Part shown: one piece after another, positions 5,388 to 32,000 of the stretch
How the letters are laid out: every line of letters starts with the position of its first letter
Numbering within the stretch: the first letter of the stretch is position 1
NCBI GenBank assembly: GCA_965231145.1
Contig: OZ246420.1
Coordinates: 90,001-122,000, forward strand
Direction: 5' to 3'
DNA: 32,000 bases
Source: Candidatus Saccharimonadota bacterium
GTDB taxonomy: Bacteria > Patescibacteriota > Gracilibacteria > Absconditabacterales > Absconditicoccaceae
The notes under the pieces: generated by a model
What the model saw: only the letters and a program-made list of their open reading frames with translations
What the model was told of the DNA's origin: nothing
Database searches by the model: none
Made by a program: the position numbers and the translations under genes

Positions 5388-6656
5388 CTATGAAAGGATG
5401 TGTAGCTCGTCTAAAAGTGTGCGATATTTGTCAAACTCCTCTCAAGTTCTTGACTTAATGAAATCTTTAACGATAATCTTTCGATCTATAAGGCTTTCTT
5501 GCAAGTTTTTCTGTGCAATCTCAAGTGTGAATGACATATCCGGAGAAAATGTTGTTTTTCTCTTTATGGCCCAGTCTTTCACAGTATGAAGAAGCTCCGG
5601 TTCGATATGCTTCTGGAGATCGTCATAGCCCAGTGATTCGGAAACGAGAGTGACGTGGGTGAGGGACGAGGGATAAGTGACGAGGGATACGTCTACTGAT
5701 CGGGTGCCACCGAAGTTTTCCAGTATTTTTATGTCAATCATTTTCTGGTGTTTTTCTATGGTAGCTTTTTCTATTTTTTCATCTGCAGAAAGAGTCAGGA
5801 CGATGTAAGGATTGATAGCTATTTGCTGTGCTTTTATGGTGTTAGTTTTCGCATCAACTTTATAGAGAAATTTGTGATGATCTTGTTCGAGAGGAGATGT
5901 ATATCGAACACTTCCCGCACAGAAATAATTTTTATATGCAAAAGGCATATGTATATGTCCGGAAATAAGTTCGATGTTTTTATTGTCCAAAAAAGCAGGA
6001 GAAAGCGCAATATCTTTGTAATCAAAGATGGCTTGCTGTCATGGGAATTTCGTATTTGCTATGTAGTAGTGGTGGATGATGGTAAGTTGTGGATATTTCT
6101 CAACGTATTGTTGTAATGTTGCATTTATAAGACCGCTTAAGCGTTCATTAGCATTTTTGGAGTTTAGTAGTTGAGTTATAGATGCATTGAATGCGTCTTT
6201 ACTTGAGGCGAGCAGAGACACATTCAACCCGGCCTTTTGCCCGGCAGGTGCGTCTGTACTCAGAGAGTTTATATGTTTAGAAAATGGGAAAAAGAGGATG
6301 TTTTTTCATTCTATCTCGTGCACTTCCGGCTCGGTAATAAAACGGATGATATTCTCTTTTTGCGGGAGAGCGTCTGCCATTTTTTTTCACTCTGCATAGA
6401 CGAACTGCTGACCAATCCAGTCGTGATTTCCGGCTAATACATACACATTTTTCCCACTTTTCCGAAGCGATAAAAAGAGGTCAAACAGGCGCGCAAGCGC
6501 CGTACGATCGTAGCTGAACATATACATATAATCGCCCAAAAAAATGATGTTTTTCTCATCATTGTTTTCTTGTGCGTACGATGCAATAGAGGCGATTATT
6601 GCATCGGCGTGTTTTGTTGTAATATGTATGTCACCGATTAATAACATAATTCTCAA
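5388..6656 (-). CDS. SbcD/Mre11-family metallophosphoesterase (putative DNA exonuclease subunit), 422 aa
   Basis: ORFs 6387..6656, 6039..6227 and 5442..5990 lie in one frame with 4 in-frame TGA (6387, 6306, 6039, 5442). The stop is TAG 5388..5390. Calcineurin-like phosphoesterase motifs occur in canonical order: GDIH, GDY, GNHD, HH, GHIH. The start is TTG 6654..6656 or ATG 6645..6647. Confidence 0.8.
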
Positions 6657-6887: not shown

Positions 6888-7535
6888 ATGCATGCACAAT
6901 ATTCAGATGACTACAACCAATTCTTGCTTTCTATTAACGCATTTGAGGTTAATTTTGATTTGCCTCATAAGCTCTCATCAGGCTTAAAGATTCCTTTCTA
7001 CTGTGATAATAGGCTTATCTTTTCGTACTTTCATGTCTATGAGTATGCGGTTCATGCTCTCAAAGATATGATACCAACTTATTTCCCGGAAATAGATGTT
7101 ATTGCTCCTGTTTCTACCGCTGGGCTGCCTCACGGATCAATATTGGGCTATCTTTTTATGAAGCCCCTTGTTTACATTCGTCCTGAAGCGAAAGCTTATG
7201 GTAAGCAAAAGCAAATAGAGGGCATATTTGAGTCAGGGAAAAGGGTGCTGATCGTAGAAGATCTGGTATTCACAGGAGAAGCAAGCTTACGGGCAGTGAG
7301 TGCTATAAGAGAAGCCGGCGGTGAAGTGGTTGGCGTCGTTAGCCTTTTCTCTTATGATCTTGCTATTGCTCAAGAGGCTTTCAAATCACACAATGTTGCG
7401 TTATGTCCTCTTACTACTTTTGCATCGCTTATCGCGACGGCTGAGGCTAAGGGAAATATTACTTCTGGGGAGAAATCTCATCTTATGGCGTGGCATAAAG
7501 ATCCATTTAAATGGAACACGCCTATGGCTGTATAA
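6888..7535 (+). CDS. pyrE: Orotate phosphoribosyltransferase, 215 aa
   Basis: The ORF is uninterrupted and ends at TAA 7533..7535. It carries the PRPP-binding motif VLIVEDLVFTGEAS. The N-terminal block LLSINAFEV...SGLKIPFYCDNRL resembles Bacillus-type PyrE. It contains no TGA codons. Confidence 0.9.
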   Translation: MHAQYSDDYNQFLLSINAFEVNFDLPHKLSSGLKIPFYCDNRLIFSYFHVYEYAVHALKDMIPTYFPEIDVIAPVSTAGLPHGSILGYLFMKPLVYIRPEAKAYGKQKQIEGIFESGKRVLIVEDLVFTGEASLRAVSAIREAGGEVVGVVSLFSYDLAIAQEAFKSHNVALCPLTTFASLIATAEAKGNITSGEKSHLMAWHKDPFKWNTPMAV

Positions 7536-12170: not shown

Positions 12171-13424
12171 TTAATCTAATCATTGGAGGAGTGATCCAAG
12201 GCCTCACAAGCTACCGCCTCAACCACCACCCATTCATCCAAAAAGGCCTCATAGCCCGGCTAGTCAACCTCAGCCGCCTTCATCATCGCCTCCGTCTTCG
12301 CTTCCATCTCATAGAGACGGGAGGAGTCATTTGAGCTTGCTGAGTCATCCAAGTTTTGAAGTCGCTCATCCGAGGCTACCTCATAGACCTTTTCCTCATT
12401 TGAGGAGTCATTTTAACTTGTCAAGTCCGCCTAGTTTGCCCAATGCTCACTCTCCATCTCCGTTACCTCCGAATGTATCGGTGAGGTTTGATAAACCACC
12501 TCAACCACCAGCTCCTCATCCTATGCCTCCAAATCCTCCCGGTGTTCCTCATGCGCCTCATAGTTTGCTTTCCGGTGTTGAACATTCTTTAGTGCCGGCT
12601 TGTATTTTACCATTTACTGCAGAGAAGGTCTCGTTGAAATGAGAGAATTTATCTACTAACACTCATCGTCTTGTTTCGAGCAGATAGCTCTGGGTGTAGG
12701 TTTTCCATGTGTCCTTCATAAAGGTGTTTGCTTTTCTTGCCATCAGTAGCTGTATGTATGTCATCTCTTCGTCGATACGTCTTCTTGAGAGATCTTCACA
12801 GGCCTTTTGGTCATAGCGAGAGTCCAGGTCGCTGGAAACGAGGAAAAATTTACGAGCGACACATGATGACTGAATACATACTGCGGTGTATCTTGCTGAA
12901 AGTGGAAGGGAATCATAGTTGCTAATTTCACAACTTTCATTGTCTACTTTAACTCAACGCCACTTTGCTGGCTCCCAGATCTCAACAAATTTCGTTTGTA
13001 TGCTGACAGGTAACTTTCCTGTTCCAACGTCTGTTCGTTCTTTGACAGCATCTTTCCATTCTTTTGCTTTTGAGTCTTCGCTTCCTTCTACTTTGTTATC
13101 CAGTTTAAAGAAGCCTTTACTGATCAACTGGTCGAAGGCATAAGGACTTTCAGGATTATCTCTGTTTTCTTGAGCGCTTTCACAGCCTTCAGTGAGGATT
13201 TCTTGCTGACAGCAATATGCCTTAAGATTATCCATAGCAGTGTGCATGTCGTCAGTGCTAAGAGGCTTGTCGCTTTTGAGTTTCAGATTGTCTATAGCAT
13301 CTTTTGGTTCATGTATCACCAAGCTACAATCATACAACGTATCCGCAAAAAGAGGGGCGCTCCGTATGGAGAGCGCTCCTATGATGGTCAAACCTATGAG
13401 CTTTCGGATAGCATTGTGTTTCAT
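12171..13424 (-). CDS. Secreted protein of unknown function with an extreme Gly-rich, TGA-dense C-terminal tail, 417 aa
   Basis: ATG 13422..13424 gives MKHNAIRKLIGLTIIGALSIRSAPLFA|DT. The standard-code ORF stops at TGA 12954, but the frame stays open to TAA 12171..12173, with 21 TGA in total. Without read-through there would be an ~800-nt gap in an otherwise tightly packed operon. Confidence 0.8.
12174..12563 (-). repeat. Gly-rich low-complexity tail (~130 codons) in which 19 codons are TGA, containing a duplicated KLGGL(D/S)KLKGLL unit
   Basis: With TGA read as G the tail reads KLGGAGGTPGGFGGIGGGAGGGGGLSNLTDTFGGNGDGEGALGKLGGLDKLKGLLKGGKGLGGSLGGATSKLGGLSKLKGLLPSLGDGSEDGGDDEGGGGGLAGLGGLFGGMGGGGGGSLGGLGSLLQGLD. 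The DNA repeat gaggagtcatttgagcttg (12321) recurs as gaggagtcattttaacttg (12402). Confidence 0.8.
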
Positions 13425-13429
13425 GTCTG

Positions 13430-16400
13430 CTATGGCAACGGCTGAGGGATAAAGGTAGTGTTTCCTATTTCTTTTCCTTGAAGATCATAGAAGGTGATAG
13501 TGATATTACGATCTTTATAAGAGTATGTTCATCGATATTGATTTTTATAGGTATCTGGTAGTCGGATGTCTCATTTCGTGCTTATATAGATGTGACAGGT
13601 ATCCGCCTGAGCAATACATGTGCCATTGCTAAATCCATGCGCATATCCATCTGCTACTTTTTGTGGCTTCCAGAGATTAGTATCGACGACTATAGTATTT
13701 AGCGCTGTCTTTCCTGCGTACGAGAGAGAGAATAGTACAATGCCTGTCCTTTTCTCTTTGATAAGTACACGAGGTGTATTTGCAGTAAACGAAACTACTG
13801 TATCTATAGACTCTTTAAAGTAGCTATCAATAGATATTTCACCACTTTCTTTATCTACTGCTCCAATACGTGTTCAGCTGCTATTGTGCAGGTCGATGAG
13901 TGCGCTTTTGACAAATACGCCTCATGAGAGTGACAGTTGATTGAATCCAAGAGGGAACTGAGATGTGATCATATTGTCTTTCCCTTTACCAGTTAATATA
14001 GATCGGATGCCATCTCTTTCTCTTTCAAAGAGTATGCTACTCTTATCTTGTCATACAGATACTGTTGTCTGTATAACGTTTTCATTATTCATCGGTTCAC
14101 TGATGTCAGTAATATTTACTTGAGGCTGTTTCCATTGTATCTTGATCGTATAAGTTGCTATATTGTCGTTTTGATCGATGGCATTGATTTGCCACGTCTC
14201 TACATCTTCACCACGATATGAGAGCGATGCGAGCGTGTTTGCTCAGGTGTCAGCTTGCGAACTTCCGTCAGCAAAGGTAATTGCATTGCCTTTGACGCCA
14301 CTGCTGTCACGCCATTGGACGACGACTCCATAGTCATTTCCTATAACAGGTGACAGCGTATATCATTGCCCATCGATAGTTTTGCTTTCTACTCTTATGA
14401 GGGCTACCGTTGGTGTTGGTCAGAGGTCATCACCTGCCAATTGAGAGCTGGCTACCTCCTGGTGTGATCGAGGAGAAGACTTTTCAAGCAGTGCTCATCT
14501 ATTGAGCGTTCTATATGAGAGCTTCGCAAGAGACATGTATTGCCGTTGTCTTGGAAGTCCGTCCAGAGAGACAGAGAGAGTTTCTTCTTCCGGATTGAAG
14601 TACTGAATGCTGAGTATGCTCTTGTCGTTTACTAAGTCGCTTACTCTCTTTTGTCCAAATATTTCATCGTAGAGGAAGACTCATTGGAGATCTGTATTTT
14701 CTGGTAAGATGAGTACATATTTTCTCGTATCTTTATTAGAGCGGTGCATATATCTTGCTTCTACAGAGTTATTAATTTGTAAGATATAGCCTTGTCTATT
14801 ATCGTTGTTCCAGCGAAGTTGTATACTGTCATATCTTTGTCCATCGAGTGAGAATGCTTGTGGTGCGCTCCTTTCTGACCATATTTTGAACATGCTTCAT
14901 CCTATGCTCAATCGCCCATCTCTTTCTACCGCCTTCGCAATATCTGCAGGCGAAGAGAATGTCGGAGTAACGTAGAGACGCGTGAATGTTGTACCGTTGT
15001 TCGCTGGCACGGGTTGGCTGTATTTTATCCGGATTTGTTTGTTGTCCCACATGATGATATCGTCTGTAGCATCCCCGTTGAGATCAGTGCGAGACTGATG
15101 TGCTTGGAGCGTTGCTATATTGTCTTGTCTGTCGACAACATTTACCATCTCACCAGACGTGTTTTTTACAAAGACACCCTGTATGTACTGGCTGATATCA
15201 GGCTGGATCGTGAGAGTGCTTGTTGTGCTATGTGCATGGGCGGTATGTGATGCGTCCATAGTGCTAGTTACTGCAGCAGCGAGAAGAGGTTTTTTCTCTG
15301 CGTCTTTCTCAGTGTTACTCACCATCTCCAGTCCGTTGTCTATAGTAGTAATAGTCTTTTCTACATAGCTTCTTGTTTCGTTGTATGTGAGGAGCGACAT
15401 ATTGAGATCGGTTGGCCCATAGGTGTCGAGCGCATTTGCAAAGCCAGTCATTACTTTCTTGTTGAGTTCAAGGTAGCTCTTCATCGGATTTGGCTCATCT
15501 TTAATTGCTTTGATGATAGATTTGTCTGCAGTAAAGAGCGAACTTCCGAGTGTTGATGACTCTGTATCACTACTTACCAGGGTTGTCTGTAGCGATGTAA
15601 CGAAAGAGTCATAGTCATGGTTGATCTTGTCCTGCATAGATGAGATATCATTTTTTATGCGGTCTATGCGAGACTGAGCCTGATGGTTGACAGCATCTAC
15701 ACCCTCGATATTAGCCGCTGTATTGCTTGGAGTTGAGAGGAGTGCAATCACATGACGAAGGGTTCTTTTTCTCTCTAATGATGTATCAGCTTCCAGTAGT
15801 GCGTGTGCCTGTGTAAGCAGGTCTGTGCGAGCTTGGGCAGCATTGTCATAGCTTAGATCCCAGAGATGAGGAGATGTGAAGCTCTGAAGTGTGTTGGTAA
15901 TGCCTCCAGCTGTGTTTCCTCATCCAGCGCTTTCATCACTGACGTTTTTGATGATAGGATTGCTGTCCTTGTTTACTTGCTCTGCGTACTCTTCGAGCGT
16001 CTTATAGATTTCATCAAAGTTAAGCTGCATATTAATATAGGTGTCGACATGTATATCTGACCCCTGAACTGGTGGTTTGATCTTTGTAACACTGATAGAG
16101 TCAAACGGCTCTACCTTCCAAGTTCTCTGTGTCAGTTGTTCTACTCTTGTTTTGACTCACTTTTCTCCGACCATGCCGATCCCTCATTTTACGATACAGA
16201 AGATCTTTGCGATATATTCAGCATATTGGAGAGTGGCGATAATCTCTGGTGTGATTTTTGGAATCTTTGGTGCAGGCGGAAGGTTTGGCATGTCGAGTTC
16301 CACATTTGGTGTGAATGAAGGAAGCTCAGGAAGTTTTGGTGGTTCAGGAATTTCTGGTGCGCTTGGGATCGTAACGCTCAGCTGTCACTGGACACCTGCG

Positions 16401-19400
16401 GATGGTGCTGGTGGGATGTCTGGAATTTGTGGGAGAGGAATAGGCTTTGGTACAAAATTGAATTTTGGTAGAAGTATATCCATACCCATATTTATATGAG
16501 ACAGGTCGATGAACAGATGTGGCATCCTAAATGGAGGTATTGGGAACACTGGTAATGGAATGCAGAGGATGCTGAGTGTGCATGCATAGAAATCGTAATT
16601 GTCTACCTTACACTTTCCGCATTTTGTTTTCCAATTTACTGAGTAGTCTATAAGAGCCTGCCATGTTTTGATAGAACTTATGTTTTGCGTCATACCATTG
16701 ACGTACTGGTCGAACTTTCTTGAGTTTTTCTGTAGCCATTCAGTCAGGTTGTTTGTGAACTTAGAGACAGTATCAGACGCTTCCGTCAAATATCTTTGTG
16801 AAGCTCCCAGCCATTTGTCTAGTTCTTGAGGGAACTCCTTATATTTATCGAGTATTTCAATGTTCTTTTTTACTGTTTTTATCAGCTCTTCGTTTTTGCT
16901 CGTTATACTTCCGCCGCCAGCGCTATTTCGATCCTGTGCGGTCTTCTCATTTCTTTGGAGCCAATTATTTAAGTATGCTTTATATCTGACGATATCTTCT
17001 TGGGCTATGAAAGGCACTTGTACATTGATGTTTTTTGTGCTGATATTGATAAGCGGTACGTTTTCAAAGAGTGTTGAGAGTGCATCAAAAGGATTAGAAA
17101 CATCATTGTCATTGTTTCTCATACCTTCTTGTGTGAAGAGTTTTTGTGATACGTCTTGTCTTGATGATGGAGTCGGTTGATTCTTTTCTTCTTCAGGTTC
17201 CTCGTCGTAGAGCGCTCTTATCTTCTTCAGTGATACATCATCAAATCCCTTAAAGAGCGATGACATCTCAGGCATGTATACGTTGACTGAAACGGTTGTA
17301 AGATTGTTAATGATATACCTTATTTGTGGATCGAGCCGGTTCTTCATAAGACATTTGACGAGTCCTTTTACGTCTCATCCCTGTACTTCAAGTTTGACTT
17401 GTTCTCCTACTTTGAGTGTCTCACTATCCTGATTTCCTCCTCCTTCCCCACCTTCGCTTATATCTTCTATGGTGGGAGTAGTATTGAAATTAACAGAGCG
17501 CCCGTCGTATGAGCCGTCATTTTCTCCCTCAGCTGAAACCGATGGAATAACTTCTTTTATCTTACCCATGATGTCATCCATCATACCTCCGCCTTGTCCT
17601 TGACCTCATACAAGATTTGAAATCATCTTAAACGGAGAACCAGATTTTCATCATTTTAGTTGAGGTGTGCTGCATGCTCCTCCTTCTGCTGCGTCATATT
17701 GCCGCTGTTCAAGAGCGGGTCTTGCGTCTCCTGGAGTAATCTGTGCTTCATCTTTTTTCGCTGTTACCACACAATTTCCCGAGATATGTTTTACTGGATT
17801 TTGTAGGCTTGCTCCGGCTGCGTATGAGCCATAACACATAGCAACACCTTCCTTATTTGTTATAGCTGGTGAGTCATATACTCTTACATTTGATGGATAA
17901 CTACCTCCGCCCGCCCAGTAGAAACCATCCGTAGGAGACTTCTGACCATATGGAGCAGGTACGTCATATGCTCCAGGGCGGATAGTTCCTGGATAGAAGA
18001 GAGATGGAAGACCTTTGTCGTCAGTCAATTTACATCAGAAAACATTGTAGGTTCCTGGAGAGAGGAATGCTACATTAAATGGCGCTTGTGTTCATTGTTG
18101 AGCCATAGTTTTTTTGTATCCACCTTTTTCAGCTTGGAATCCCTTACAAAATCCTTGCACAGCTCCATCTACTTGTCTTTCTGTATCTTGAGTCATGCTT
18201 GTCAGTTGTGGATTGTTGCTACTCATATCAAGACTACCATTTTCAGAGAGGGACTTGTTGTCCCACTTTTCAAGTATCTGATCCATGCCAGGCATCTTGC
18301 TGATATCCGGATTGCTACCTTGTGATGCACCTTTGATCTTGCTTTGTATGTCGGTGAGCTTTGATGTCAGCGCAGAACTTTGTTGCTTTTGCATTTCTTG
18401 CATCTTTGGTGCAAGGTCGGTAAACGACTGGGTAAAGTTTTTTGTTCCATTTGATGTAAACTGTTCAAATCATTGCTGGCAGCTATCGGTAGAATGTGTT
18501 TTTATGTCAGTTGCCTGATCTCCGTTAATGTTACCGAGAGAAATATGTACTAATTTTGGTGCCTTATATTTGAGAACTTCGCTGAACGTTACGCTTTGTC
18601 ATCCTTTAAGTGAAATATTATCTATCATGTACTGATAGCCATTTTCCATATTCCAGTTTACGGTTGAGCCTGCTGGTAGACTTCCTTTGTTCCAGCTTGG
18701 TATTTCTCCTTCACTATTTTTACTAATTCTCCATGGTCACTTGATGTCATGCAGATAGGTAACCATTGTATCGCTTTTTGCTTCAATGGTTGTCTTCACG
18801 CGTACTTCTTCACCATCTACCAATGGTCCTGAAGATGGTTTTACTCTTTCATATTGTTTATATGTTACCACAGGAGATGTCTCGTCCAGCATGGTGCCTG
18901 GCATATATGCTATGGTTTCCAGGCTGTTAGCCGGTTCGTATGACGGTAAGGTGCTGATAGGTGATGCAGAATATTGCATGAGAGTCGGTAGCCCACTATC
19001 TATCATGCTTTGTATATTAAATCCAGAGAAGTCACTTTCTGTTCCCTTGAGGAGATTTTGTATCTGTGGATCAGCAGCAAGAGGGCTATCAGGGCTTTCT
19101 TCATTTACTTCTGGAGGAAGAGAAAGTCACTGCCAGTGAACCAGGCTGTTGTCGTATATCTTTTCATTTTCACTCAAAGTGACGCCATATGATTTGACTA
19201 ATTTAATATGATCTTCTTGTCTTGTCTTTCGCTCGCTATCACAGGTAACCTTATTTTTTGAAATGTAATTATCTCCTGCAGAAGTGCGTCCACCATAGAA
19301 AATCTTAATGTTGCCTGCGGTATCATTTGTAACGATATCGACCTTATTGTCTCCGTCCATATCATGCACAAAAAACTCATATGCATGAGCGATGCTTTGA

Positions 19401-22400
19401 TCTCAACCTGGTATATCTAAACAGACTTGCTTTCCATCGACATCTACAGTTCAACCATTGTTTTTATAGACTCTCAGTTTATCATGAGATGTCTGGATGA
19501 TGATATCCTCATAGCTATCTCCATTGGCATCGCCAGCAAAGGCATTTTTGATGCCATCATCAATAACCATAAGCATTCACAAGTCCTTATAAGGATCTTG
19601 CCCGCCTTTGTTTTTCAGAATCCTTGCAGATCAGTCGGAATATGTTACCAACAGATCCTTTTGTCCATCTTTGTCTACATCAAGAGGAATAGTTTTTGAG
19701 ATGCTTTTCTCTGTTTCTGTGAAAACTGTTTTTCATTGACCTCCATCGTAATTTGTTCCCGCAATTGTTGTGTTTTCGCTTTGACGTCCAAGCAGAGGAT
19801 CGCCAAGCGTAATAAGGAAAGGAGACGCTCCATGCTGAGTAGCTTTTCCTACTTTGTCTCCTTCGGCAAAAGCGGTTGCTGCATGAAAAGTGTTTTTCCG
19901 GTTTGTATTGGTATCAGTATCGACAGATTGCTCAATACCTCACTTCCATGGAGAAGATGAACCAAGAGGCACAGCATTTTTATCATAGATCATCCATCCG
20001 CGGCTGCTATTTGTTGATCCACCAAGCCAGATTGATTCAAGGCCGATGCTGTCTTCTAGATGAATATTACTGGTGTTTATAGTTGCGTGGATGCGTAGTG
20101 TTCCTACTATTTTTCCTTGTATTTTTACATTCCATACAGTATCCCCATTTGTATATTGATTGCTGTTTACTATCTCAGCGCTATTACCTGTAGATGAGTT
20201 TATGGACCATACAGGCGATCCATTGATCACGATAGTATTGTTTATGATCTCGTTGGTTTCAATAACGCTGTCTGTTTGGCGAGCCGTATAGAGAAGAGTG
20301 TTTTCGCCAAATGATTCATCTGCTGTTCCGGCTCTGAGAGTTAATGAGCTCGCGCTTCCTAATGCAATATATCCTTTTGTATTGAGATCATATGTCAACA
20401 CATTGTCTCTTTTGGTGAGACGTATATCTGATGCATCATAGATCTGACCATTGTTGTTGATACGAAGCAGTGCAGGGAGGATATTGTTTGGGTTGGTGAG
20501 AAGTGTTGTTACGGCAAGTGCTTTATCTGACTTTGTGAGGATGTTCTGCGCTTCATTTGATTGCTGTGAGAAGTAGTTCCATCTATTGCCTCGGTCGCTT
20601 CCAGCAAGTATCATATACATAGCATTGAGATTGTCTGTTTTCCAGAAAGGAGAAAGTATCGTTATCTTTTTTGCATCAGGCAACTGTGCCTCTGGTGCTA
20701 CTCATGCAAGAGTAGCATAAATATATTGTGTTCCTGCGGCTTTCTCGCTGCTAAGAGTAAATGGAGCGCTTCCGTTGGTTGCCGTAGTTACTTGCCCACT
20801 TGATGATCCATTTATCTTGATACCACCAATCGTATGGAGGTTGATGCTTACAGGAGCATCAATAGGGTTGTTCCATCTATCATATGCAAACACCTGTCCG
20901 CTGGTGTTTTTTTCAGCCAAGAAACTATCGGGTGCTTGGATGCCCACACGATATGGCTTTGCAGGATGGATAGTCACAGGTATAGTTTTTAGAGGAAGGC
21001 CTGGAATTTCTAGCGTGAGAGTGTCTTGTCCTGCTTGAAATGAAGGATAAAGGATAATCGTAGCAACGCCACCTTTGATGGTAAATGAAGATTGCTCTGA
21101 AAATTCTTTTGCGGTTACTCTTTGACCGTTAAGTGTATAGCTACTTTCTTTTACTCTTCCTGGAAGGAGGAGTCACTGAGTACTCTTGATGACACCATGT
21201 GTTTCTAAGGGTTTCTTATCTGGCGTAGTAAGTGTCAGTACGATCCTTGGAACCGCATTTTCCTGTAGCTGGTCAACGCCGTTTTGATTGCGGAAAAAAG
21301 CTGATGTGCTTTCAGGAAGAGTGATGTCTATGTGGGATGTATTTACTGTATTATGCTTCACCTCGAGGATTCATTCGGTGAGCGAGATTGTTTTTCTGAT
21401 AGGCGAGAGAGAGTCAGAAGAAATTGGTGTCAGTAGCAGCTCAACTTCTGCAGACGCAGAAGGAACGTCGCTCAAATCCAAGACGAACATCTCATTTTTA
21501 TCAAAACGTTGGAGTTCTATACCTGTCGTGATATTGCCGTTGGTAATGATTTTCCCTTGAGAAGAAGAGAGACGGAAGGTGTTTGTACTTTGTTCAACAG
21601 CATTTCAGTATGCATCATATCACATCACTGAGAAAGGCATCTCAGATCTTTTGAGTATTTTATCTGTCGGCGTAATAATAGTCGCAGTGACAAGAGGCCC
21701 AGCGATAACAGGAACGATAAGTTTTTTCTCTGTACAACGAACGTTTTGACAGATCTTTACTGTGAGGATACTTGCTCCAATATTTTTGCCCGCAAGAGCT
21801 ACTTTCAATGTACGAGGGGTCTTGTAAAGATCTCCCTGGAATGCATACTCAGCATTACACACATTTCTTCCTTCGATGATCGGACAGTTTTCTCCCGTTC
21901 CTGAGATACGGATATTAAGATTGCCGCTGTCCTTTAAACTTGCGATCGTCAGAGTTGCTCCACTTGTGTTGTCTACACTGAGAGTATTCTTATTGAGTCT
22001 CGCTGTAAGAGTGTTATCAAACGCCGCAATCAATGTTTGTGCTTCATCAGAAAGAGCCCCAAGAGATGAGTTTGTAAGAGACCTCCAAGTTGGGTTAAGT
22101 TCTTCTACGTTATCTCCTAGGGTGACATCGGTGTCTTTAAATTGCTGTGATATAAGTACAGGTCATTTTGCATTTGAGAAATTTACTTTCACTACATCAG
22201 AAATAGTTTGTTCCTGCATAGATTTCATCCAGCATCCTAGAGAAGCTGGCCATTGAAGCAGAGGTGTTGTGCCATCTGTATCAATACCACATTTTTTATC
22301 TCTTTCTGTTGCCTGCATATCAAGAGCCGCATTGACCGCGTCAGTGCTTGAAATCTCTGCCGTTGCTGCGAGTTTCTGTTGTTCTATATTGTTGATAACA

Positions 22401-25111
22401 GCAGGAGCTATTGTATTTTTCAGAGCATCATTACCATCTGAGTTGATATAGACAAGCTCATAACCACTTGCCTGATATCATGGGACAGATCCCATAGAAG
22501 GATTGTCTTGTTTCGTGATATAATTTTTCGTCACGTTGGCTATTTTCTTGTTAACGTCAAATGAGTGTTCGTTGTTCTTCAGATCGGTAAGAAGATCTGT
22601 TGAAGATGGTTTTTCAGATCGTCCAAGATTTTGCCAATAAAGTACATCAGCGATCGCTTTGATCGTCTCTTCACCGAGGGCGGTTATGAAAAAGTCTTCA
22701 GGAAGAAGAGCGTATGAGCGACTCTTAGGTGTCGCGTATGGATTGACTACAGCCAGTTTGTCAAATGCGATGCTCTTTGGCGCATAGTGTGTCGCAGCTG
22801 CGCTATTTTCTGTTGAGAGAGTTACATTTATAGCACTTACTTTCTGCTTGAGATATGCCTTTATACTCTCTGTTATCTCCTGAGGTGATTGGAGGGTTAG
22901 TTTTTCTCATTGTTTCTTATAGACAGAAACATTGTAGATATTTGGATAGTCAAATTTTACTGTACCACCACCTATACCTTTAAATGCAACAAACCTTGCG
23001 CTATCGATAGGTCTGTCAGCAGTAAGAGGACTCATGCCTTTCACTTCTTCAGGTGTCGGTGATGAGTGCGACTCAAGAGTGTCTATTGTTTTGTACACAT
23101 AATTCTCACCACACTCATGCGTACTTGTGTTGGTGTTTGTATTTGTCACAAAAATATGATCATTGTAATCAGCAGTTGCGACCTTAGAGAAATATTCAAC
23201 TTCTATAGGGGCCTTGATCGGATGACCATTGTATCGATTTTCATTGACCTCTCCTGGAGGTACTATTTCTCAACATATTACTCGTGGGGCAATGCGAAAC
23301 TGTTGTGTTCTATGTAGGAGTGAGTTATTGAGTTCATCAAGAAAGAAAATATCTGTATTCATTTTTTTAAGAGTGAGCTTTGATCCCGCTATGTCGTAGA
23401 CGGGTCATCCAATGGTTGTATCAAAGCGCGGATTCCATGCCATCTTTGGATCGTTTTGCTTGAGCTGGAGCGTGTTCCCATCTACATTGAGAGGAGTCAT
23501 GCCTCCTCGGTATTTGTTTACAAAATCATCAAGTGTTTGTCTGTCGTTACACTTTCTTGCATTGTAGAGTTCGATATCTTTAGATATAAGTTCGATATTA
23601 TAACCTCTAGAGCTTTCTACCTGTCTTGAAGAGATACCATATGAAGCACCTATGGATCTTGCTGTATAGTCCAATGGTATATCGTCCTGCTGACCTTGAG
23701 TAGCATAATTATATGATGTCAGGTTTTGTCGACTTCATATGTTTTTCCATGTACCACGATAGATAGAGATGTCATTGGTAGATGTTACATCAAAAGCACT
23801 CTTTCCAAAATAGAAATTTTCATATCTTCCCACGAGTTTCTTTGGTACAAAATCCGGTGGTAAAACTGGTGGTACAGGAACACACTCATACTCTTCGTAG
23901 ATTAGTGGAATAGGAATATGAAGAGCATAGTTACCTGTTTGTAGTTTTTCGTAGAGAGCCTTTTCAAGTACGCTATTTGCATCGAACAGCGCCGTGCTTG
24001 TTAAGGTGTCTTTCACCACAGTTTTTTTGATATGACTATCAACGTTGGCGGCGTTCCATCTTCCACCTGCAATAATGTTTTGATCGATGTTTGTAAGATA
24101 CTCGGGTGCGAAGAGAGAAGTATATGGCTGTACGAGAGAAAGCAACGCTGTTCACATCATAAGGGTTGGTATCTTTGCGGTCTCGTTTCCTAATTTCTCA
24201 AGCGTTTCAGCGCTATCCGCGGCGATAGCTGTTAATCACTTTTTCCATTTGTCTATTTCTGCTTTATAAGTACTTCATTCAGTTGATAACTGTGAGTAGG
24301 ATTCTTCATTTGGAGAAAGCTTTTGAGCGTCATCACCTATAAGCGATAGGGCGTTATTATTTGCAGCGTCTTTGAAGTAGTCGAATATAAGATTTGTATA
24401 CCTGTGATAAGTGATGTCTTCGTGAAAAAGAAAGTTGTTAATATAACCAGAGAGAAACTGATCAGCAAAATATTTTTTTAATCCAATAAAATCATCGTAC
24501 CGTATTTTGGTAGATGTGTAATTTATTGGATTTTGTTTGTAGTTTCTCAGCTTGTCGAAAAACTTAGTGTATTGATCATCCTGATCTTCAAAGTTGATCA
24601 TGCTTTGCCATATATCTGCCTTGTGATCGCCATCGTCCTCAGTAACAAAATAGGTAGAAGCTGGATCGTATACATAACTAGGTTTCTCAAGGTCTGTATA
24701 TGGGTATATGCTTGGATAGATATAGCTATTTTCACGTATAACCGGCAATGGGATATCTCCTATGAGGATAGTTCCTATAAGAGAAGAAGGGTTTTTTTGG
24801 TTTCCTTCTTGGTAAAGATTTTCTAATATCTTCCATATGTCATAGGCCTGAAAATTGTTTTTATCGATAGGCAAGAGGATGGCTTTTGTATTGTTACTTT
24901 GCGACTGGAGATATTCCTGAGCATACCAATTTATGTTTTCTTTATGCTTATCGTAAATGTTCTTCTCTACGAATACGGCAATGATATTTTCGTGTATTTC
25001 TTCTGCAGCATATACGTTGCTAGAAAAGCCAAAAATCCACTGTGTGAACGAGTGGGAAAAGAAGTACACGCAAAGCAATATACCTATGGCTGTTTTTGTT
25101 TTCAACGACAT
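13430..25111 (-). CDS. Giant secreted/anchored multidomain surface protein, 3,893 aa, with FG-GAP/integrin-like and Ig-like repeats and Pro-rich and Gly-rich linkers
   Basis: Sixteen listed minus-strand ORFs from 14681..14893 to 24275..25132 all lie in the same frame. I translated every gap between them and the whole of 13430..14681. There are 45 in-frame TGA and no TAA/TAG until TAG 13430..13432. ATG 25109..25111 gives MSLKTKTAIGILLCVYFFSHSFTQWIFGFSSNVYA|AEE. An in-frame TAG lies upstream at 25145..25147. Confidence 0.85.
19270..19800 (-). other. FG-GAP/VCBS-like (integrin alpha beta-propeller type) repeats inside the giant protein
   Basis: Three Ca-binding-type loops occur: DVDKDGQKD (19655..19681), GDANGDSYED (19505..19534) and HDMDGDNKVD (19337..19363). 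They are spaced ~50-57 aa apart. Each is followed by a hydrophobic strand and then an N-x-G turn (ILKNKGG, VYKNNG-G, KIFYGG). Confidence 0.6.
20702..21730 (-). other. Tandem bacterial Ig-like (Big_1/invasin-type) repeats inside the giant protein (tentative)
   Basis: The repeats read ...PFSVM-G-YDAY-G-NAVEQSTNTFRLSSSQGKI... and ...GQVFAYDRWNNPIDAPVSINLHTIGGIKINGSSSGQVTTATNGSAPFTLSSEKAAGTQYIYATLA. They follow the pattern V-x-a-x-D-x-y-G-N-P-v ... T-d-x-n-G-x-A ... G ... v-x-A typical of these domains. Confidence 0.5.
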
Positions 25112-25224
25112 GGCGAACACCCTGATAATCAATAAGATAACCGGCTATTTATTCTTTCTATGCAAATATAAATTGATTGCAAGATCTTGCGAAGCCAATA
25201 CCATTTAAATGATATATAATATAT

Positions 25225-25275: not shown

Positions 25276-26961
25276 TTATATGCCGTTGATAGAGAAGAAG
25301 TTTTCCATGTCTGTCATGTAGTCGTCATAGAGACCCTGAAGTGTTTGATCTTCTGGAGATAATCTCAGTGCGTTTCTTGTGTCAAGGAATGGGATGTATA
25401 TATCACTACAAAACTCTTTCACGTCGTCGAGGTTTATGCCCATGCTTCTTCCTTGTACACACATATAGTAAGCAATACCTTGTGTTGTAGTTTCATCATC
25501 GCTATCTCTATTGTTCTCAAGAATATCAAGTCTTGCAGAAAGATCAGCTATAGTGTCTCTATTTGCGATGTACTGATCGTACATATCTTGAATAGTATCA
25601 ATGTCAGCGTAGTCGAGTCTGAGATCTTCTACTGTGTCATTGAGAGCTTTCACTGCTTCGATCACGAGAGCCATGATGTTAGGATACTGTACAGACTTCT
25701 TTCCATCCGGTTGCGTCTTTACGAGCTGTGGAAATACTGCTTCTACTTCCTGCGCGAGAAGACCTACATCATGTCTTCCGTTTGCTATCCAGTCGAACGT
25801 ATATCCATTGAGATCCATAATTTTATCTAGGGGATTTGTGATCTTTACGATATTTTCTTTCAGGGTCTCATCAGAGATGATATATACTGAGTCTGTGAGG
25901 ATGTCTCCTTCTACATGAAGCGTTGCTCCTGGAGTTGAGGTTCCGATACCAACATCTCCACCGCTATAATATATCACGCCAGCTCATCCATCTCTCCAGT
26001 AACCACTAGCTGTTACTGATGATGGCATAACGACCAGGTTACCCAATGCGTCAACTCCAAGATTTCTTACTCACAATCCACCGTATGAACTGAAACGAAC
26101 CTTACCCACAACGTCAAGCGCTCCTTCCGGAGTATAGTTGTTGATACCTACGCGAGTACCTGTTACAAAGAATGCAGTCGCTGCAGCTGGAGTAGTACTA
26201 CCATCTGGATAGAGTATCTCACCACTTGTATCTACTCTGAAAGGTCCTTTTACGTGAAGTTTGGCAAGAGGAGTATCAAGACCTACTCCAACATTTCCAT
26301 CATTATCAGGATAGAAAGTTCCATAGTATATATCATAAGGATTTCAAGGAGAAACGTGCCATAAAGATGCTCCAGATGCGCTAAATGAACCGCCTCCTGA
26401 AAACGCATCTCCACATATAATCGCTCCTGTAGAAGTCCATCCCATAAGCACGCCTGACACACCACAACTTCCTGCTGAAATAATAGGCACGCATGTAGGT
26501 ACTCCTGAAGCTACACCCACAAGTACTTCACCGGCAGGACAGCTTACTGTTGTCGTACCACCTCCTGAACCCGCACCTCCTGTGAGGACGAACGAGAGCA
26601 TTTCAGTTGTGATAGAACCTGGTGCAATGTCTCCGCTTCCGATAAGTCCTCTCGTGATATACCCAAGAGAGTTAAGTCTTAGTACTCCTTCCGTTGGGCC
26701 ACCTAAAGAGCCGCTGTCCACCCAGATACCACCTGTACCAAGTACGATTTTAGTTGATCCTGATGGAGATCCATCTGTAGTGATGCGAAGTTCTCTGAAC
26801 GTACCAATAACATTGTTAATGGCGCTTTCGATAGCAAGATCGGCGTGAGTAAATGAAAGAGACAGTCACGCAAGTCCTATAAGAGCACACACCATAGTTA
26901 TTCCCTTTAGCAGAGGATGCTTTGGCATATGCTTTGTAAGATCTGTTTTGTTGTATAGCAT
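25276..26961 (-). CDS. Secreted tail-fibre-like protein with C-terminal peptidase-S74 intramolecular chaperone domain, 561 aa
   Basis: ORFs 26344..26721 and 25276..25977 share a frame, with in-frame TGA at 26866, 26344, 26071 and 25984. The stop is TAA 25276..25278. The start is ATG 26959..26961, or ATG 26926..26928 which gives MPKHPLLKGITMVCALIGLA-G-LSLSFTHA|DLA. The unit (N/D/R)VG(V/I)G-x(2)-TP-x(3)-LHV-x-G is repeated. The protein then reads ISDETLKENIVKITNPLDKIMDLNGYTFDWIANGRHDVGLLAQEVEAVFPQLV...VQYPNIMALVIEAVKALN. Confidence 0.85.
25620..25875 (-). other. Peptidase_S74-type intramolecular chaperone (auto-cleaving) domain of gene 25276..26961
   Basis: The signature S-D-x-x-L-K-E-N-I ... 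G-Y-x-F-x-W ... G-(L/V)-x-A-Q-E-V-E ... P-x-L-V ... Y-x-x-(I/L) ... A-(V/I)-K-x-L is known from phage tail-fibre and endosialidase C-terminal chaperones. The candidate cleavage Ser codon is 25873..25875. Confidence 0.7.
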
Positions 26962-27012
26962 GATGTAGAGAATATATTAATAAAGAAGTTTAATTATGTT
27001 GATTAATCTTTC

Positions 27013-30000
27013 TTATCTAGGTATGGATATGCCGTTGTCTCTGAAGAAGGTTTGAAGATTTATCAAAGCTAGATTATAAGCGCCTTCTAAATCTCTATTT
27101 TTTGGAGCACTCTCATGATTTTCCTTTGCTGTTTGGTAGGTTGGATAGATGGTGTTACATAGATTGTCGATATTTTGTGGATTGAGGCCATGTTCATCTG
27201 TTCCATTACATATTTCTTCTGAGAGAAGTTCAATCGCTGATTTTTTGCTTGTTGGTTGCTTAGGATTTCTTGCGTCCCATGCTTCTCCATTTTCGAGGGA
27301 GGCGATACGCAGTTCAAGTATCGCTATCTGATCTTGCTGTGCTTCCAGTCTTGCTGCTCATGCATTCATCATCTTTGCATCGAGTTCTTTAAGTGCAGAG
27401 ATAATCCCCGCAAGCAGATTTGGATATTCAACAGCGCGTATGGTTGTATCGCCTTGTCACTGCTGTCATTGTTGTTGTCACTGCTGGGTTTGTCATAAAC
27501 CACCTTGTGCTGGTGATGAAGGAGTTCATCCTATATCTCTGCTGCTTACCGTAAATGATCTTACGGCGCTTGGATAGATAGAGGCAATTTCTTGAGCTAC
27601 AAGTCCTACATCATCTCTTTGAGAACGAATCCATTTAAATGTATATCCTGTCAATGATAGTATATTGCTAAGGCCATTGGATATCTTGTTGATATTTTTT
27701 TTCACATTTCGATCTGATACTATATATGTCGCATCCGTAAGGATATCTCCATTGACATGAAGAGTAGCACCAGGAGTATCAGTCCCAATACCTACAGATC
27801 ATCCGCTGTATGAGAGTATGCTATTTCAAGCGTATAGATTTTCATCCCATTGTTCTCAGAGTACTGACATAGAAGATCATGTCGTGAGAAGTTCTCCCCA
27901 AGAATTAGCTCCTAAATATGAATATCCTGGTGTCAATACCGAGCGGAATAATATGTTACCTACAACATGAAATGCAGTGTAAGGTGTTTCGGTATTTATA
28001 CCAACCCTAGATCATATCACAAAAATATTAGCTCAGTTATAAGGGATCGTTGTTGCTCCGATAACTCATGCGCCACCACCTGGAGGAGTAAGGGCGGCAT
28101 TTGGAGCGCTTGCTCCTGTGAAAGGAATGTAAGTTGGCATTTGAATACCAAACGAATGATATAGCGTTGTTCCTCCTGAGTCAAATGTATCATGACAAAG
28201 TGATGTGCCCGAAGGTGTGATTTCTATAGTCATGTCTACAGCTGGTTGAACAGCAGGAGCGTCGTATGGAGGATAGAGTATGCTTACGCCCAATAATTCG
28301 TTTGCCTGTGTTGTAGGATGAACGATGGAGCAATCTTCTGTCATAGGGTCTAGGTCGCAAGAACAATTTACAGAACTTATGCTTGTAGACGTTTGTATAA
28401 CAGGGCTTGTAAGTGCGCGAAGGTATCATATGAGTGTTCAGCTAGCAGGTGACTGATATGCATCATAGTATGGAACGCCCCCCAGTAGATAATTATCGTA
28501 ACATGTTCGTATAGACGTGCTAAGCATTGCTCCCGTTGGTTGATATGCATCTACGATCGTTCCGCTTCCGGCTCAACAGTTTTGAGTGGTTATGTCGACA
28601 TCGCAATCACATCTTGGAGTGTTTGGTATTCAGCTTGGATTTGATATGGTTCTTGAAAAATTGTACGTATATCATAAAAACCCACCAGCAGTATCAGAGT
28701 ATTGATATGGTGCTTGTATTAATCCATTATTGTCTACTCTAAATGTAGCAGCTGTGCTGAATCCTGTTCCTCCTGTTCCAGAAACTCATCCTGTAGTGAG
28801 GATAGTTCCATATCTTCTAAAGAAGTGTCCAGGAAAGTATTCCATGTCTGTATATGCCAATCAGCTTATACCTACATCCATACACATCGGTCCATCGTCA
28901 CCATTTGTGAAGCCATATCCACAATCAAAAGAGTCTGGATCCAAATCACATGCACATCTCGGAAGAAGTTGTCCAACCGGAGGATAAATAGGAGCTCCAG
29001 ATCCTGTATATTCTCCACGAATAATGTTTGGCACAGGACTATACGTAAGTGTTCCTCCTACTGGAGATCAGCTACCAGTATGATATGTTACCGTAAGTCT
29101 ATGCTCTACAGAAGTGTTGGTTGTTATGTTGAAATCAAAACAAGCGTTTAGTCCTGGATGAATCCATATTGCCGGAGATCACTGTATTGTTGTGGATGGA
29201 CTTGAACATGCAGCATCTGTTGCATACATGTTTGTGTCACATGGGCAGCGGAAACCAGCTGCGAGCCCCTCTACAAAACCGTACTCATACTCGAGACTGG
29301 TAGCGCCTCAAGTACTTCCTTCACATACCATGCCAAGATCAAATTCCATTCATCCGTACCACTGAGATAGATACTCAATACCCCCAGACGTGAATGATTC
29401 AGTACACTGCGAATCTCCTTCGTTATCATTTGTGGCAATGTATTCCATAGGATACGAAGGGTATGGTCCTGTTCCACCAGCATAACGAAGACATTTTCCG
29501 GGAGTTGTTGGATCTTCTGTTTCACATGCACACATTGGCAATCCTGCTGAAACAACGCTCGTATAACCAGGACTTCACATAGGGTATTCTCCTGCGAGTT
29601 GCACGAAAGCGTAGCCAGTTGACGGAACCAGATTACAAGCACACGAACTATTTGTCACTGTTTTATGAACATATTGTAATCCTTCTGATCGGTGTTCAAG
29701 TTGTACTACTCATCATGACATATAGAGTTGTACACACTGTTCTCCATAAAAGCTCCCCGTCATCTGGGCATTGAGGAAAATTGATCATGTAGCAAAAACA
29801 AGACACTTCCCCGGATACGCCGGATCAGGATTGAAACAATTACAAGGCGTCATAGATGCAAAATCCGAAAAATATGGAGAGCTTGGTGTTATAGGAGCAT
29901 CCCCAAGAGTGTAGACATATCAGTGGACAGTTGTTGACACACTACTTCATGACCCTGCTTCACAGAGAGTTGTGTTGGAAGGATAAGAAACATGAAGCTT

Positions 30001-30762
30001 TGTAAGTGGAGTGTCGCGCCCTACCGCAACTCCCTCGAAACATGAGTCTCCGTCAAATCACATCCCTGGCGTATAACTTTGACCAAGTCATCCCATCCCT
30101 TGTTGCGTAGGGTCTTCACATCCTTCGATTTTGCTGTAGTAGATATCGAAAGGAGTAATAGACGAAATTGTTCGTAATTCTCCAGAACCCGCGCTAAATG
30201 AACCACCTGTTCCACTACAATCAGGAAGTCCAAGACTGATCCATCATACAAATGTGGTTCAAGGAGTACACATGGGACTTGGTAGTATGCTTACAAGCGG
30301 AGCTGGTGTACAGATCGCTGTTCATCAAGAAAATCACGCTATCGCTTCTCCTGCAGGACATGAACCATCGCTAAATCAACCAACTCCGCCTCAGAGAGAA
30401 TATGATAAAATGTCAAATGCAAACATCTCTGTCGTGAGGCTTCACGAGGCAATGCGAGATCCATCTATCGTATCTGTACGAGAAAAACGTCCGTCCGGAG
30501 CGATGAGAATGTCTTCTGTGCCTACAGCGTCAGGAAGCTTTATAAGATGGTCATTCGTTCCTGAAAACTCTACGAGAGCACTGCTTGATGCGTCTCCATC
30601 TGTAGTGATAAGGAGTTTTTGAAAATAGGGAATATCCCTCAGGATGCTTGTATCAAGAGTAAGAGCACTTACGCTTTCTGAAATAAGAGCTGCCGCTCAG
30701 AGGCTAAGAGCTAGCGTGACAAGCCGCTTTTTGTTTCACTGCTTTTGTTCCATAACGAACAT
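27013..30762 (-). CDS. Secreted tail-fibre-like protein with ~6 Cys-motif modules and a C-terminal peptidase-S74 chaperone domain, ~1,249 aa; paralog of 25276..26961
   Basis: I translated the frame codon by codon from 30786 to 27013. It contains 42 in-frame TGA and no TAA/TAG between TAA 30784..30786 (upstream bound) and TAA 27013..27015. Starting at ATG 30760..30762 or 30751..30753 gives MEQKQ-G-NKKRLVTLALSL-G-AAALISESVSA, a signal peptide. It shares SLTTEM, CPAGE and VGIGTDTPGATLHVNGDILTD with the paralog. It also has SDRNVKKNI...GYTFKWI...VGLVAQEI...VEYPNLLAGIISALKEL and a similar C-terminal end (FFRDNGI versus FFSINGI). Confidence 0.8.
27370..27717 (-). other. Peptidase_S74-type chaperone domain of gene 27013..30762, interrupted by a Gln/Gly insert
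   Basis: The signature matches that at 25620..25875. An extra segment, SSRDIG-G-TPSSPAQGGL-G-QTQQ-G-QQQ-G-QQ-G-QGD, lies between the AQE and YPN blocks. Confidence 0.65.
28330..29844 (-). repeat. Six protein-level modules (~80-115 aa period), each carrying a C-x-C-(D/E/F)-x-(D/N/E)-(P)-x(4-9)-C motif
   Basis: The six motifs are TPCNCFNPDPAYPGKC (29803..29844), PMCACETEDPTTPGKC (29491..29532), FRCPCDTNMYATDAAC (29206..29247), PRCACDLDPDSFDC (28921..28956), PRCDCDVDITTQNC (28576..28611) and VNCSCDLDPMTEDC (28330..28365). Confidence 0.7.
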
Positions 30763-31229: not shown

Positions 31230-32000
31230 ATGAAAAAACTACTTATTTTGATGAGCTTTGTTTGCTCATTTTGTGTTCCTGTTTTCGCTCAGTTCGTAAC
31301 GAATGAGATACAGGTTGTTACTAAAGCGCCTATTGTGTGGAATAGTAAAGAACAGTCAGCGGAATTCCTTGAAAAATTTCCTGCGGGTTCTAAGGTTGTT
31401 AACTGTGCTGACATAACATTGTTCAGCCAGCAAGAAGACCTTGTAAGGCAGGGGAGATATTGGGGAACTCTATTTCTTGTTCAACTGCCCACCTCGAACG
31501 CAAGTACACTAGTTTCCACTAAGCAAGCATTGCTTGAAAATGATGAAAGTGTTGTTAAGGACGTCTACTTAAATGTTGTAGGCTCTTCAAACTCGTCTAC
31601 TCCAATTACTTTTTCAGACCCTGTTTTTCCTTATGACATGCAGTATAACGCTGCTGCGATAGCGGGGGGTGTAAAGTACACCGGCTGGCAACATGCTAAC
31701 GGCTATATATTCTATAATACCGATAGAATATTAGTTGGAGTAATAGATGGAGGCGCTAATTTGTCTCACCAGGATGCGGTTAATTCCTATTATATTAATG
31801 CTTTGGAAATAGCGGCAAATGGTATTGATGACGACATGAATGGAAGGATTGATGACGTGAATGGTTGGAATTTTGTTTCTAGTAATAATAATGTTGCTGA
31901 TGACAATCCTATCGGACATGGCACAGTTGTTTCTAGTGAATTGGGCGCTCGTAACAACAATTCAAAGAATACTGTTGGTTACTTGTCAGACTCAATGTCT
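31230..32000 (+). CDS. Subtilisin-like serine protease (peptidase S8) with signal peptide; 3' end outside the window
   Basis: ATG 31230..31232 opens 257 codons with no stop of any kind to the window edge. This ORF is absent from the supplied track. The N-terminus is MKKLLILMSFVCSFCVPVFA|QF. The catalytic Asp block is ILVGVIDGG (Asp 31746..31748). The Ca-loop-like segment is NGIDDDMNGRIDDVNGWNF. The catalytic His block is DNPIGHGT (His 31917..31919). Confidence 0.85.
   Translation, partial: MKKLLILMSFVCSFCVPVFAQFVTNEIQVVTKAPIVWNSKEQSAEFLEKFPAGSKVVNCADITLFSQQEDLVRQGRYWGTLFLVQLPTSNASTLVSTKQALLENDESVVKDVYLNVVGSSNSSTPITFSDPVFPYDMQYNAAAIAGGVKYTGWQHANGYIFYNTDRILVGVIDGGANLSHQDAVNSYYINALEIAANGIDDDMNGRIDDVNGWNFVSSNNNVADDNPIGHGTVVSSELGARNNNSKNTVGYLSDSMS

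Follow-up and report, generated by a model that had tools for sequence, protein, structure and literature searches.

The reading of UGA as glycine in SR1 and Gracilibacteria has been published since 2013 (Campbell et al. 2013 and Rinke et al. 2013, as cited in PMC8629427), and NCBI translation table 25 describes a code with UGA as glycine and only UAA and UAG as stop codons, in which CGA and CGG are kept as arginine. For the Absconditabacteria, a code with three reassignments was predicted by Codetta, namely UGA as glycine and both CGA and CGG as tryptophan (Shulgina and Eddy 2021, eLife, PMC8629427). In this predicted code AGA is the main arginine codon, CGA and CGG are rare, and the tRNA(UCG) and tRNA(CCG) bear tryptophan identity elements (G73, no A20). 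Mixed decoding of CGG was described among Gracilibacteria in the same work, and the reassignment in the Absconditabacterales was restated in a 2026 paper (PMC13092985). Vampirococcus has been described as encoding giant membrane proteins, the largest with 4,163 amino acids (PMC8080830). Here, we analyzed a stretch of 32,000 nucleotides from contig OZ246420.1 (positions 90,001 to 122,000; hereafter the window, always at its full length), which carries a giant surface-protein gene interrupted by many in-frame TGA codons. An earlier note, made from the letters alone, had proposed that TGA encodes glycine in this DNA (code 25) and that the DNA is of Gracilibacteria/Absconditabacteria-type origin.

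Altogether, our analysis makes it highly probable that the window is a chromosome segment of an uncultured member of the Absconditabacterales (SR1; Patescibacteria/candidate phyla radiation), whose genetic code deviates at three codons, with TGA read as glycine and CGA and CGG read as tryptophan. The locus shares with table 25 the meaning of UGA and the two remaining stop codons but differs in CGA and CGG, so that a table-25 translation would place arginine at about 0.5% of positions, which are probably tryptophan. It shares with the Codetta code all three reassignments, AGA as the main arginine codon and the rarity of CGA and CGG, and differs from it in a G+C content of the window (about 0.41–0.42) above that quoted for the reassigned clades and in the type of evidence, which comes from codon exchange between orthologs and not from inference on Pfam columns. 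As in the Mollicutes with their table 4, the genome is small and reduced and UGA has a sense meaning, although the amino acid is glycine here and not tryptophan. Both reassignments and the lineage are already known from publications; the locus therefore adds little new biology and represents a known phenomenon that was correctly recognised, and its practical use lies in annotation.

TGA is clearly a sense codon in this DNA, translated rather than terminating. Under code 11, the stop-to-stop frames of at least 200 codons in the window number 13 and comprise 3,471 codons, with a longest frame of 340 codons. Reading through TGA raises this sum to 14,687 codons, whereas freeing TAG or TAA instead yields only 4,071 and 4,060 codons, respectively. 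A single minus-strand frame (13430..25144) extends over 3,904 codons without any TAA or TAG, compared to about 2–3% of these two codons in the off-frames. Ten co-oriented minus-strand genes tile the window, and their 9,811 codons include 155 TGA, 81 TGG and 656 GGN; table 11 breaks these genes into fragments, and on the source contig code-11 gene calling cuts rpoB into four pieces. UAA and UAG stay stop codons, as 11/11 genes checked are terminated by TAA or TAG, and so is a subtilase gene at the right edge of the window. It is next to inconceivable that the in-frame TGAs represent selenocysteine, programmed read-through or the stops of pseudogenes: nothing beyond their mere presence in frame speaks for this, while 155 of them are distributed across ten genes, orthologs hold GGN at the same columns and some TGAs occupy invariant glycines of essential genes. 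For selenocysteine, in addition, Rfam shows no selenocysteine insertion sequence (SECIS) element.

The comparison with conserved families and with orthologs supports glycine as the amino acid encoded by TGA, because homologs hold glycine at the TGA columns of RpoB, RpoC and FolD and because orthologs exchange TGA with GGN codons. For the conserved genes, the flanks of the window were read from the logan contig ERR4405439_61 (76,398 bp), which matches the phosphoribosyltransferase gene of the window exactly and of which 67.5 kb were read. Two of the three RpoB TGAs fall on ‘hkrrlsalGpggl’ (LGPGGL) and ‘dtklGpee’ (DTKLGPEE), and the sole RpoC TGA falls on ‘grsvivvGpqlkl’ (VGPQLKL), and the solved RNA polymerases in the printed alignments all have glycine at these three positions; the third RpoB TGA is located in a variable insert. 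In FolD, TGA is found at six conserved glycine positions (glycine in 5/5, 5/5, 5/5, 5/5, 4/5 and 3/5 structures) and at no tryptophan position. Thus, a check against family profiles, as suggested by the earlier note, returned glycine in solved structures at these columns of all three proteins, and tryptophan columns, which would have spoken for the opposite, were not seen. Internal TGAs are absent from the genes for S2, L7/L12, L10, S6-S18 and EF-Ts, which are hence uninformative in this respect. Extending the comparison lineage-wide to 39 RpoB and 37 RpoC genes, we found TGA on glycine 1,270 times among conserved columns, on tryptophan 0 times and on other residues 31 times. The use of TGA at conserved RpoB glycine columns varies strongly within this set: it is seen at 2–3 columns in this genome and its closest relatives, and at 35–53 columns in other relatives (L014-L068), where TGA is the main glycine codon.

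For the codon exchange analysis, 14 genuine genes were aligned to those of three relatives sharing the gene order, namely L010 (NCBI GCA_030429145.1), L011 and L012, with TGA, CGA and CGG masked, and the partner codons were read afterwards. Over all 283 TGA columns, the partners were GGN in 148, TGA in 34, TGG in 1, CGA/CGG in 1, other arginine codons (AGR/CGY) in 2, lysine in 7 and other codons in 90 cases. Restricting the analysis to 150 strict columns resulted in 99 GGN, 23 TGA, 1 lysine and 27 other partners, while TGG, CGA/CGG and the arginine codons were each counted zero times. The sequence context of TGA points in the same direction, with glycine accounting for 12.7% of the residues beside TGA, 10.1% beside GGN and 4.6% beside TGG in the window genes. 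Among the domains of the window, Pfam scores favor glycine over tryptophan to a modest extent (FG-GAP_3, +5.7 bits; Invasin_D3, +6.8 bits; Big_1, +5.1 bits), and the metallophosphoesterase score is uninformative (37.0 bits with glycine vs 37.3 bits with tryptophan).

One competing reading is tryptophan (table 4), the meaning of TGA in Mollicutes and in certain insect endosymbionts and recoded phages. Public gene calls of relatives (P0123, P0142, P0143 and P0158) indeed read LWPGGL and DTKLWPEE, and one sub-threshold FG-GAP match in the window scores 4.7 bits better with tryptophan. However, the ‘W’ residues of these public entries occupy invariant glycine positions of the RNA polymerase, TGG is the ortholog partner of TGA in only 1/283 columns (0/150 strict ones), and 0/1,301 of the conserved RpoB/RpoC TGA columns are tryptophan. 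Furthermore, this reading would imply 6–8% tryptophan and less than 2% glycine in some members of the giant-protein family, and 14.5% tryptophan in the glycine-rich tail of a secreted protein of the window. Taken together, a tryptophan meaning of TGA is extremely improbable.

Several observations weigh against glycine, or against the overall interpretation built on it, and deserve mention at this point. Besides the FG-GAP match just described, about one third of the TGA columns (90/283) stand opposite non-glycine residues, and three further FolD TGAs lie on a conserved serine, histidine and asparagine. As a whole, though not site by site, the non-glycine partners fit substitutions at variable or small-residue positions. 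In addition, the decoding machinery was not encountered: ARAGORN detected a tRNA gene neither in the window nor in the 67.5 kb read from the source contig, and over all loci scanned (more than 70) the only tRNAs were Cys(GCA) and Gly(GCC), both from the 57 rpoB loci of relatives, where no anticodon UCA occurred. Rfam reported only the L10 leader and no rRNA gene in the accessible sequence. Based on published work on this lineage, UGA would be decoded by a tRNA-Gly with the anticodon UCA, and release factor 2 (prfB) would be missing from the genome; in the same way, CGA and CGG would be decoded by tRNA(UCG) and tRNA(CCG) with tryptophan identity.

The individual arguments of the earlier note fared differently. 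Its starting point was the stretch SVM-TGA-YDAY-TGA-NAVEQ in the giant protein, which was said to reproduce a signature of bacterial Ig-like repeats. The conclusion of glycine is borne out at both sites by two orthologs, PFIVLGYDTYGNLIEQ and PIIVAGYDTYGNKVEQ, which have GGT/GGG opposite TGA 21620-21622 and GGA/GGG opposite TGA 21605-21607; distant homologs have G, A or W in the former column and G, D or W in the latter. The basis of this argument in the Big_1 family did not hold, with Big_1 (PF02369) reaching 22.3 bits (cut-off 34.9) and Invasin_D3 28.4 bits (cut-off 33), and with these sub-cut-off matches located on the neighbouring, second repeat and not on the repeat with the two TGAs. The signature was hence the weakest of the five arguments. 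For the pair of Peptidase_S74 paralogs, a blastp alignment placed TGA opposite GGN eight times and opposite TGG not once, in line with what had been claimed, and both the internal repeat pairing TGA with glycine and the TGAs inside GGN runs were seen on direct reading of the tail. The fifth argument, a normal supply of tryptophan by TGG, is correct in substance, as the tail (12174-12563, 131 codons) contains 19 TGA (14.5%), 40 GGN and no TGG. The figure of 1–2% given for TGG, however, has to be lowered to 0.83% of codons, to which CGA and CGG add 0.47% (46 codons). The underlying positions are accurate throughout: each of the seven TGA coordinates (21620, 21605, 30442, 30244, 27799, 12345 and 12501) marks the lowest position of an in-frame TGA on the minus strand, the quoted codons at 26617..26619 and 25957..25959 are GGT and GGA, and the peptide quoted for the neighbouring repeat from 20864 onwards reads FAYDRWNNPIDAP as given.

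The mistranslation of TGA is visible in public databases as well. RpoB entries of relatives (P0123, P0142, P0143, P0153 and P0158) are table-4 translations that read LWPGGL, LGPWGL, DTKLWPEE and RDGWQRFGEMEVW, and table-4 entries of the giant-protein family (P0172-P0211) show 6–8% ‘Trp’ and glycine contents as low as 0.7%. Such entries represent a systematic mistranslation in large protein collections.

While UGA as glycine thus agrees with code 25, table 25 as a whole does not describe this genome. CGA and CGG behave as tryptophan codons in our comparisons, a feature that had escaped the earlier note. A first lead came from the ortholog table, where TGG stood opposite CGA nine times and opposite CGG three times, in both directions. 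Across the three relatives, the partners of CGA/CGG were TGG in 59 and CGA/CGG in 16 cases, with one lysine and not a single true arginine codon; control arginine codons of the same ortholog set paired with arginine 229 times, with lysine 90 times and with TGG once. Considering only the codons of this genome, CGA was found opposite TGG (17), CGA (12) and CGG (2), and CGG opposite TGG (12) and CGA (2), again without any arginine. Dipeptides with swapped spellings (CGG-TGG vs TGG-CGA) occur in S2 as well as in a small membrane protein. Paralogs inside the window show the same exchange, with CGA 30172-30174, CGG 4942-4944 and CGA 1486-1488 each opposite TGG. Lineage-wide, 38 conserved tryptophan positions of RpoB and RpoC are written as CGA (21) or CGG (17), while at conserved arginine columns CGG is absent and CGA occurs five times, each time in the distant outgroup L070, a Gracilibacteria-labelled record that still uses TGA for glycine. 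In FolD, the codon in ‘GDVD-CGR’ falls on phenylalanine in 4/5 structures and another CGA/CGG on isoleucine or valine. In total, the window genes contain 46 CGA/CGG in 9,811 codons, about half the count of TGG, and arginine is mainly written as AGA.

Three points run counter to tryptophan at these codons. First, several CGA/CGG are located at the boundary between the n-region and the h-region of signal peptides, where arginine would look natural; their ortholog partners are isoleucine, tyrosine, methionine and leucine. Second, CGA 27709-27711 (minus strand), located where the Peptidase_S74 domain of the long paralog B starts (‘SD-x-xxK’), scores 51.6 bits as arginine, 50.7 as glutamate and 46.5 as tryptophan and stands opposite glutamate in paralog A; it is the sole dissenting CGA. 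Third, the G+C content of the window (0.38–0.44) exceeds the range of 0.26–0.38 given for clades with reassigned CGA/CGG (PMC8629427).

Because CGA and CGG behave as tryptophan codons here, table 25 describes the code only in part and would still call about 46 probable tryptophan positions of the window arginine. The ortholog codon-exchange table provides independent support, by a method other than the Pfam columns of Codetta, for the predicted CGA/CGG reassignment, and this support comes from a genome with a G+C content above the range reported for it.

The meaning of these codons is closely tied to the origin of the contig. To place it, the N-terminus of RpoB (431 amino acids) was compared with the genomes of GTDB, each species being represented by one. 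The highest identities were obtained with ‘Patescibacteria group bacterium Gw_Eff_bin_18’ (JAGOPC01, 92%) and JAUIDC01 (90%), followed by the Candidatus Absconditabacterales metagenome-assembled genome AS-MESO-OLR.81 (73%), the complete SR1 genome RAAC1_SR1_1 (CP006913, 63%) and many metagenome-assembled genomes of Absconditabacterales, SR1 and Absconditicoccaceae (55–65%), whereas L070 (GL98), the most divergent Gracilibacteria-labelled record, reached 33%. An identical RpoB fragment is already on record in a 1.1-Mb NCBI contig. The giant protein belongs to the same FG-GAP/VCBS family as proteins of Candidatus Vampirococcus lugosii (P0189, 4,153 amino acids) and Absconditicoccaceae. Its distant homologs measure 4,000–4,600 amino acids, and the best named ones, from these two sources, show 30–31% identity; named homologs as a whole share only 25–32%. 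A scan of GTDB genomes for exact 8-mer peptides of the giant protein recovered no relative, the family being too divergent. Because of the RpoB identities, the giant-protein homologs and the behaviour of CGA and CGG, we assign the contig to the Absconditabacterales (SR1) and not to the divergent L070 clade, a placement that relies on the identity ranking of a single marker and on names. The origin proposed in the earlier note is thereby narrowed to the Absconditabacterales. Some relatives in the band of 60–65% RpoB identity carry Peribacteria or Gracilibacteria labels at NCBI, which also speaks against this order; we take these labels to be loose naming.

The alternative would be a divergent, L070-like member of the Gracilibacteria with plain table 25, in which CGA and CGG remain arginine. 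In its favor, the earlier note had attributed the DNA to both groups, two relatives with 60–64% RpoB identity (L043 and L055) are labelled ‘Candidatus Gracilibacteria bacterium’, CGA 27709 fits arginine better, and the published mixed decoding of CGG concerns Gracilibacteria (PMC8629427). On balance, we regard this alternative as improbable: the RpoB identity amounts to 63–73% with named SR1/Absconditabacterales compared to 33% with L070, CGA at conserved arginine columns is confined to L070 (5) and found at 0/34 of these columns here, and the CGA/CGG of this genome stand opposite TGG 29 times and opposite arginine codons 0 times.

Recoded genes with tail-fibre-type domains could also point to a phage or prophage of a recoded host. 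Peptidase_S74 domains, known as tail-fibre chaperones, are present in two adjacent genes next to the giant protein, orthologs of the S74 genes were not recovered at the loci of the relatives, and the neighbouring subtilase has a foreign codon usage. The contig itself is a bacterial chromosome and not a phage, because genes of ribosomal proteins as well as rpoB and rpoC lie on the same molecule. To the left, the window is followed by the L10 leader, rplJ, rplL, rpsB, tsf, a fused rpsF-rpsR, rpoB and rpoC, and to the right by the subtilase, a rhodanese-family gene, hflX, a sigma factor gene, a sufS-like gene, folD, rnhB and a gene for an ATPase of the type IV secretion system (T4SS) type. In two relatives, the block between the giant gene and the metallophosphoesterase keeps its gene order, and in the third a 937-kb contig preserves the order between the metallophosphoesterase and rpoC. 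None of the Pfam listings showed a domain of a capsid, portal or terminase protein. A phage origin of the window is therefore highly improbable.

The features of the window are compiled in Table 1. Among them, the TGA-bearing genes constitute a typical cell-surface repertoire of this lineage, consisting of the FG-GAP protein of about 3,900 amino acids and of secreted and membrane proteins. The share of TGA among glycine codons is graded by gene: it is 0% for S2, EF-Ts and S6-S18 and 3% for RpoB, but reaches 17% for the giant protein, 28% for S74 paralog B and 31% for the protein with the glycine-rich tail.

Table 1 Features of the window and selected codons discussed in the text. Cut-off refers to the curated Pfam gathering threshold; TGA, TGG and CGA/CGG are in-frame counts.
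Feature	Position	Strand	Remarks
Ribosomal protein L10 leader	75..230	-	Rfam RF00557, 45.2 bits (gathering score 44)
Polytopic membrane protein	349..2328	-	7 TGA; L010 ortholog 55% identity; paralog of 2368..5313; CGA 1486, CGG 1480 and CGA 1447 each opposite TGG
Polytopic membrane protein	2368..5313	-	18 TGA; L010 ortholog 54% identity; paralog of 349..2328; CGG 4942-4944 opposite TGG in two relatives and in the in-window paralog
Calcineurin-like metallophosphoesterase	5388..6647	-	PF00149; 4 TGA, 4 CGA/CGG; TGA 6039-6041 opposite GGG in a relative; CGA 5904-5906 opposite TGG in three relatives
Phosphoribosyltransferase	6888..7535	+	PF00156; no internal TGA
Secreted protein with Gly-rich tail	12171..13424	-	22 TGA, 19 of them in the tail; orthologs in L011 and L012 with 46–52% identity
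Giant surface-protein gene	13430..25111	-	ATG 25109-25111 to TAG, 3,893 codons; 45 TGA, 40 TGG, 19 CGA/CGG; FG-GAP_3 (PF13517) repeats, 29.5–37.2 bits (cut-off 26.9); orthologs in L011 and L012 with 48–49% identity over about 3,000 residues
Example of CGA as probable Trp in the giant gene	20591..20593	-	AGSD-CGA-GNRW; orthologs with TGG: GGNDWGNKW, ggSDWgNKw
N-terminal part of the giant gene	21590..25111	-	1,174 codons; 11 in-frame TGA, 4/11 in the ortholog-aligned part
Two TGA of SVM-TGA-YDAY-TGA-NAVEQ	21605..21622	-	21620-21622 and 21605-21607
Peptidase_S74 (intramolecular chaperone), short paralog A	25276..26976	-	4 TGA; PF13884, 62.7 bits (cut-off 22)
Peptidase_S74, long paralog B	27013..30762	-	42 TGA (among them 30442, 30244 and 27799), 5 CGA/CGG; PF13884, 45.2 bits (cut-off 22)
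Subtilase with Por_Secre_tail domain	31230..32000, on to about 35250 (L005 3096-7115)	+	1,339 amino acids; Pfam; type IX secretion system-type C-terminal domain

At the left edge, the L10 leader is situated upstream of rplJ-rplL, with the first rplJ codons inside the window and rplJ-rplL continuing beyond it; the L10 and L7/L12 genes are present in L001 and L003. An apparent fusion of rpsF and rpsR gives a 189-amino-acid product (L003 14608-15177) that matches both Ribosomal_S6 and Ribosomal_S18, and the same arrangement is found in L010. The two polytopic membrane paralogs end in long tails rich in threonine, proline and asparagine, and an ATPase of the DUF87/T4SS-DNA_transf type (VirD4/TrwB-like; L072 7042-9528) is encoded about 30 kb away. 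The three proteins may belong to an apparatus for type IV secretion or the uptake of DNA.

In S74 paralog B, the middle part contains an insert of about 650 residues that is missing from paralog A and is rich in C-x-C-(D/E/N) motifs, such as ‘CNCFNPDP’, ‘CACETEDP’, ‘CPCDTNMY’, ‘CACDLDPD’, ‘CDCDVDIT’ and ‘CSCDLDPM’. This insert looks like a repeated cysteine-rich module. An open reading frame at 29271-29642 is off-frame and for this reason has no database record.

Finally, the subtilase differs from the other genes in its use of codons. It contains 116 GGN and no TGA, which has a probability of P = 8e-9 at the TGA share of 14.8% in the other genes, and no other gene of the contig deviates as strongly in codon usage (chi2/df of 6.3 vs 1.0–3.7 for native genes). 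A plausible, though less likely than not, explanation would be a recent horizontal acquisition from a donor with the standard code into a doubly recoded genome. The adjoining Gln_deamidase_2 gene also lacks TGA and has 4 CGA/CGG in 258 codons. If such a transfer took place, the subtilase would be a concrete case of a gene entering across a code barrier, the one CGA it contains would now be mistranslated as tryptophan, and its sequence could give a clue to the donor, perhaps a host or prey organism resembling Bacteroidota.

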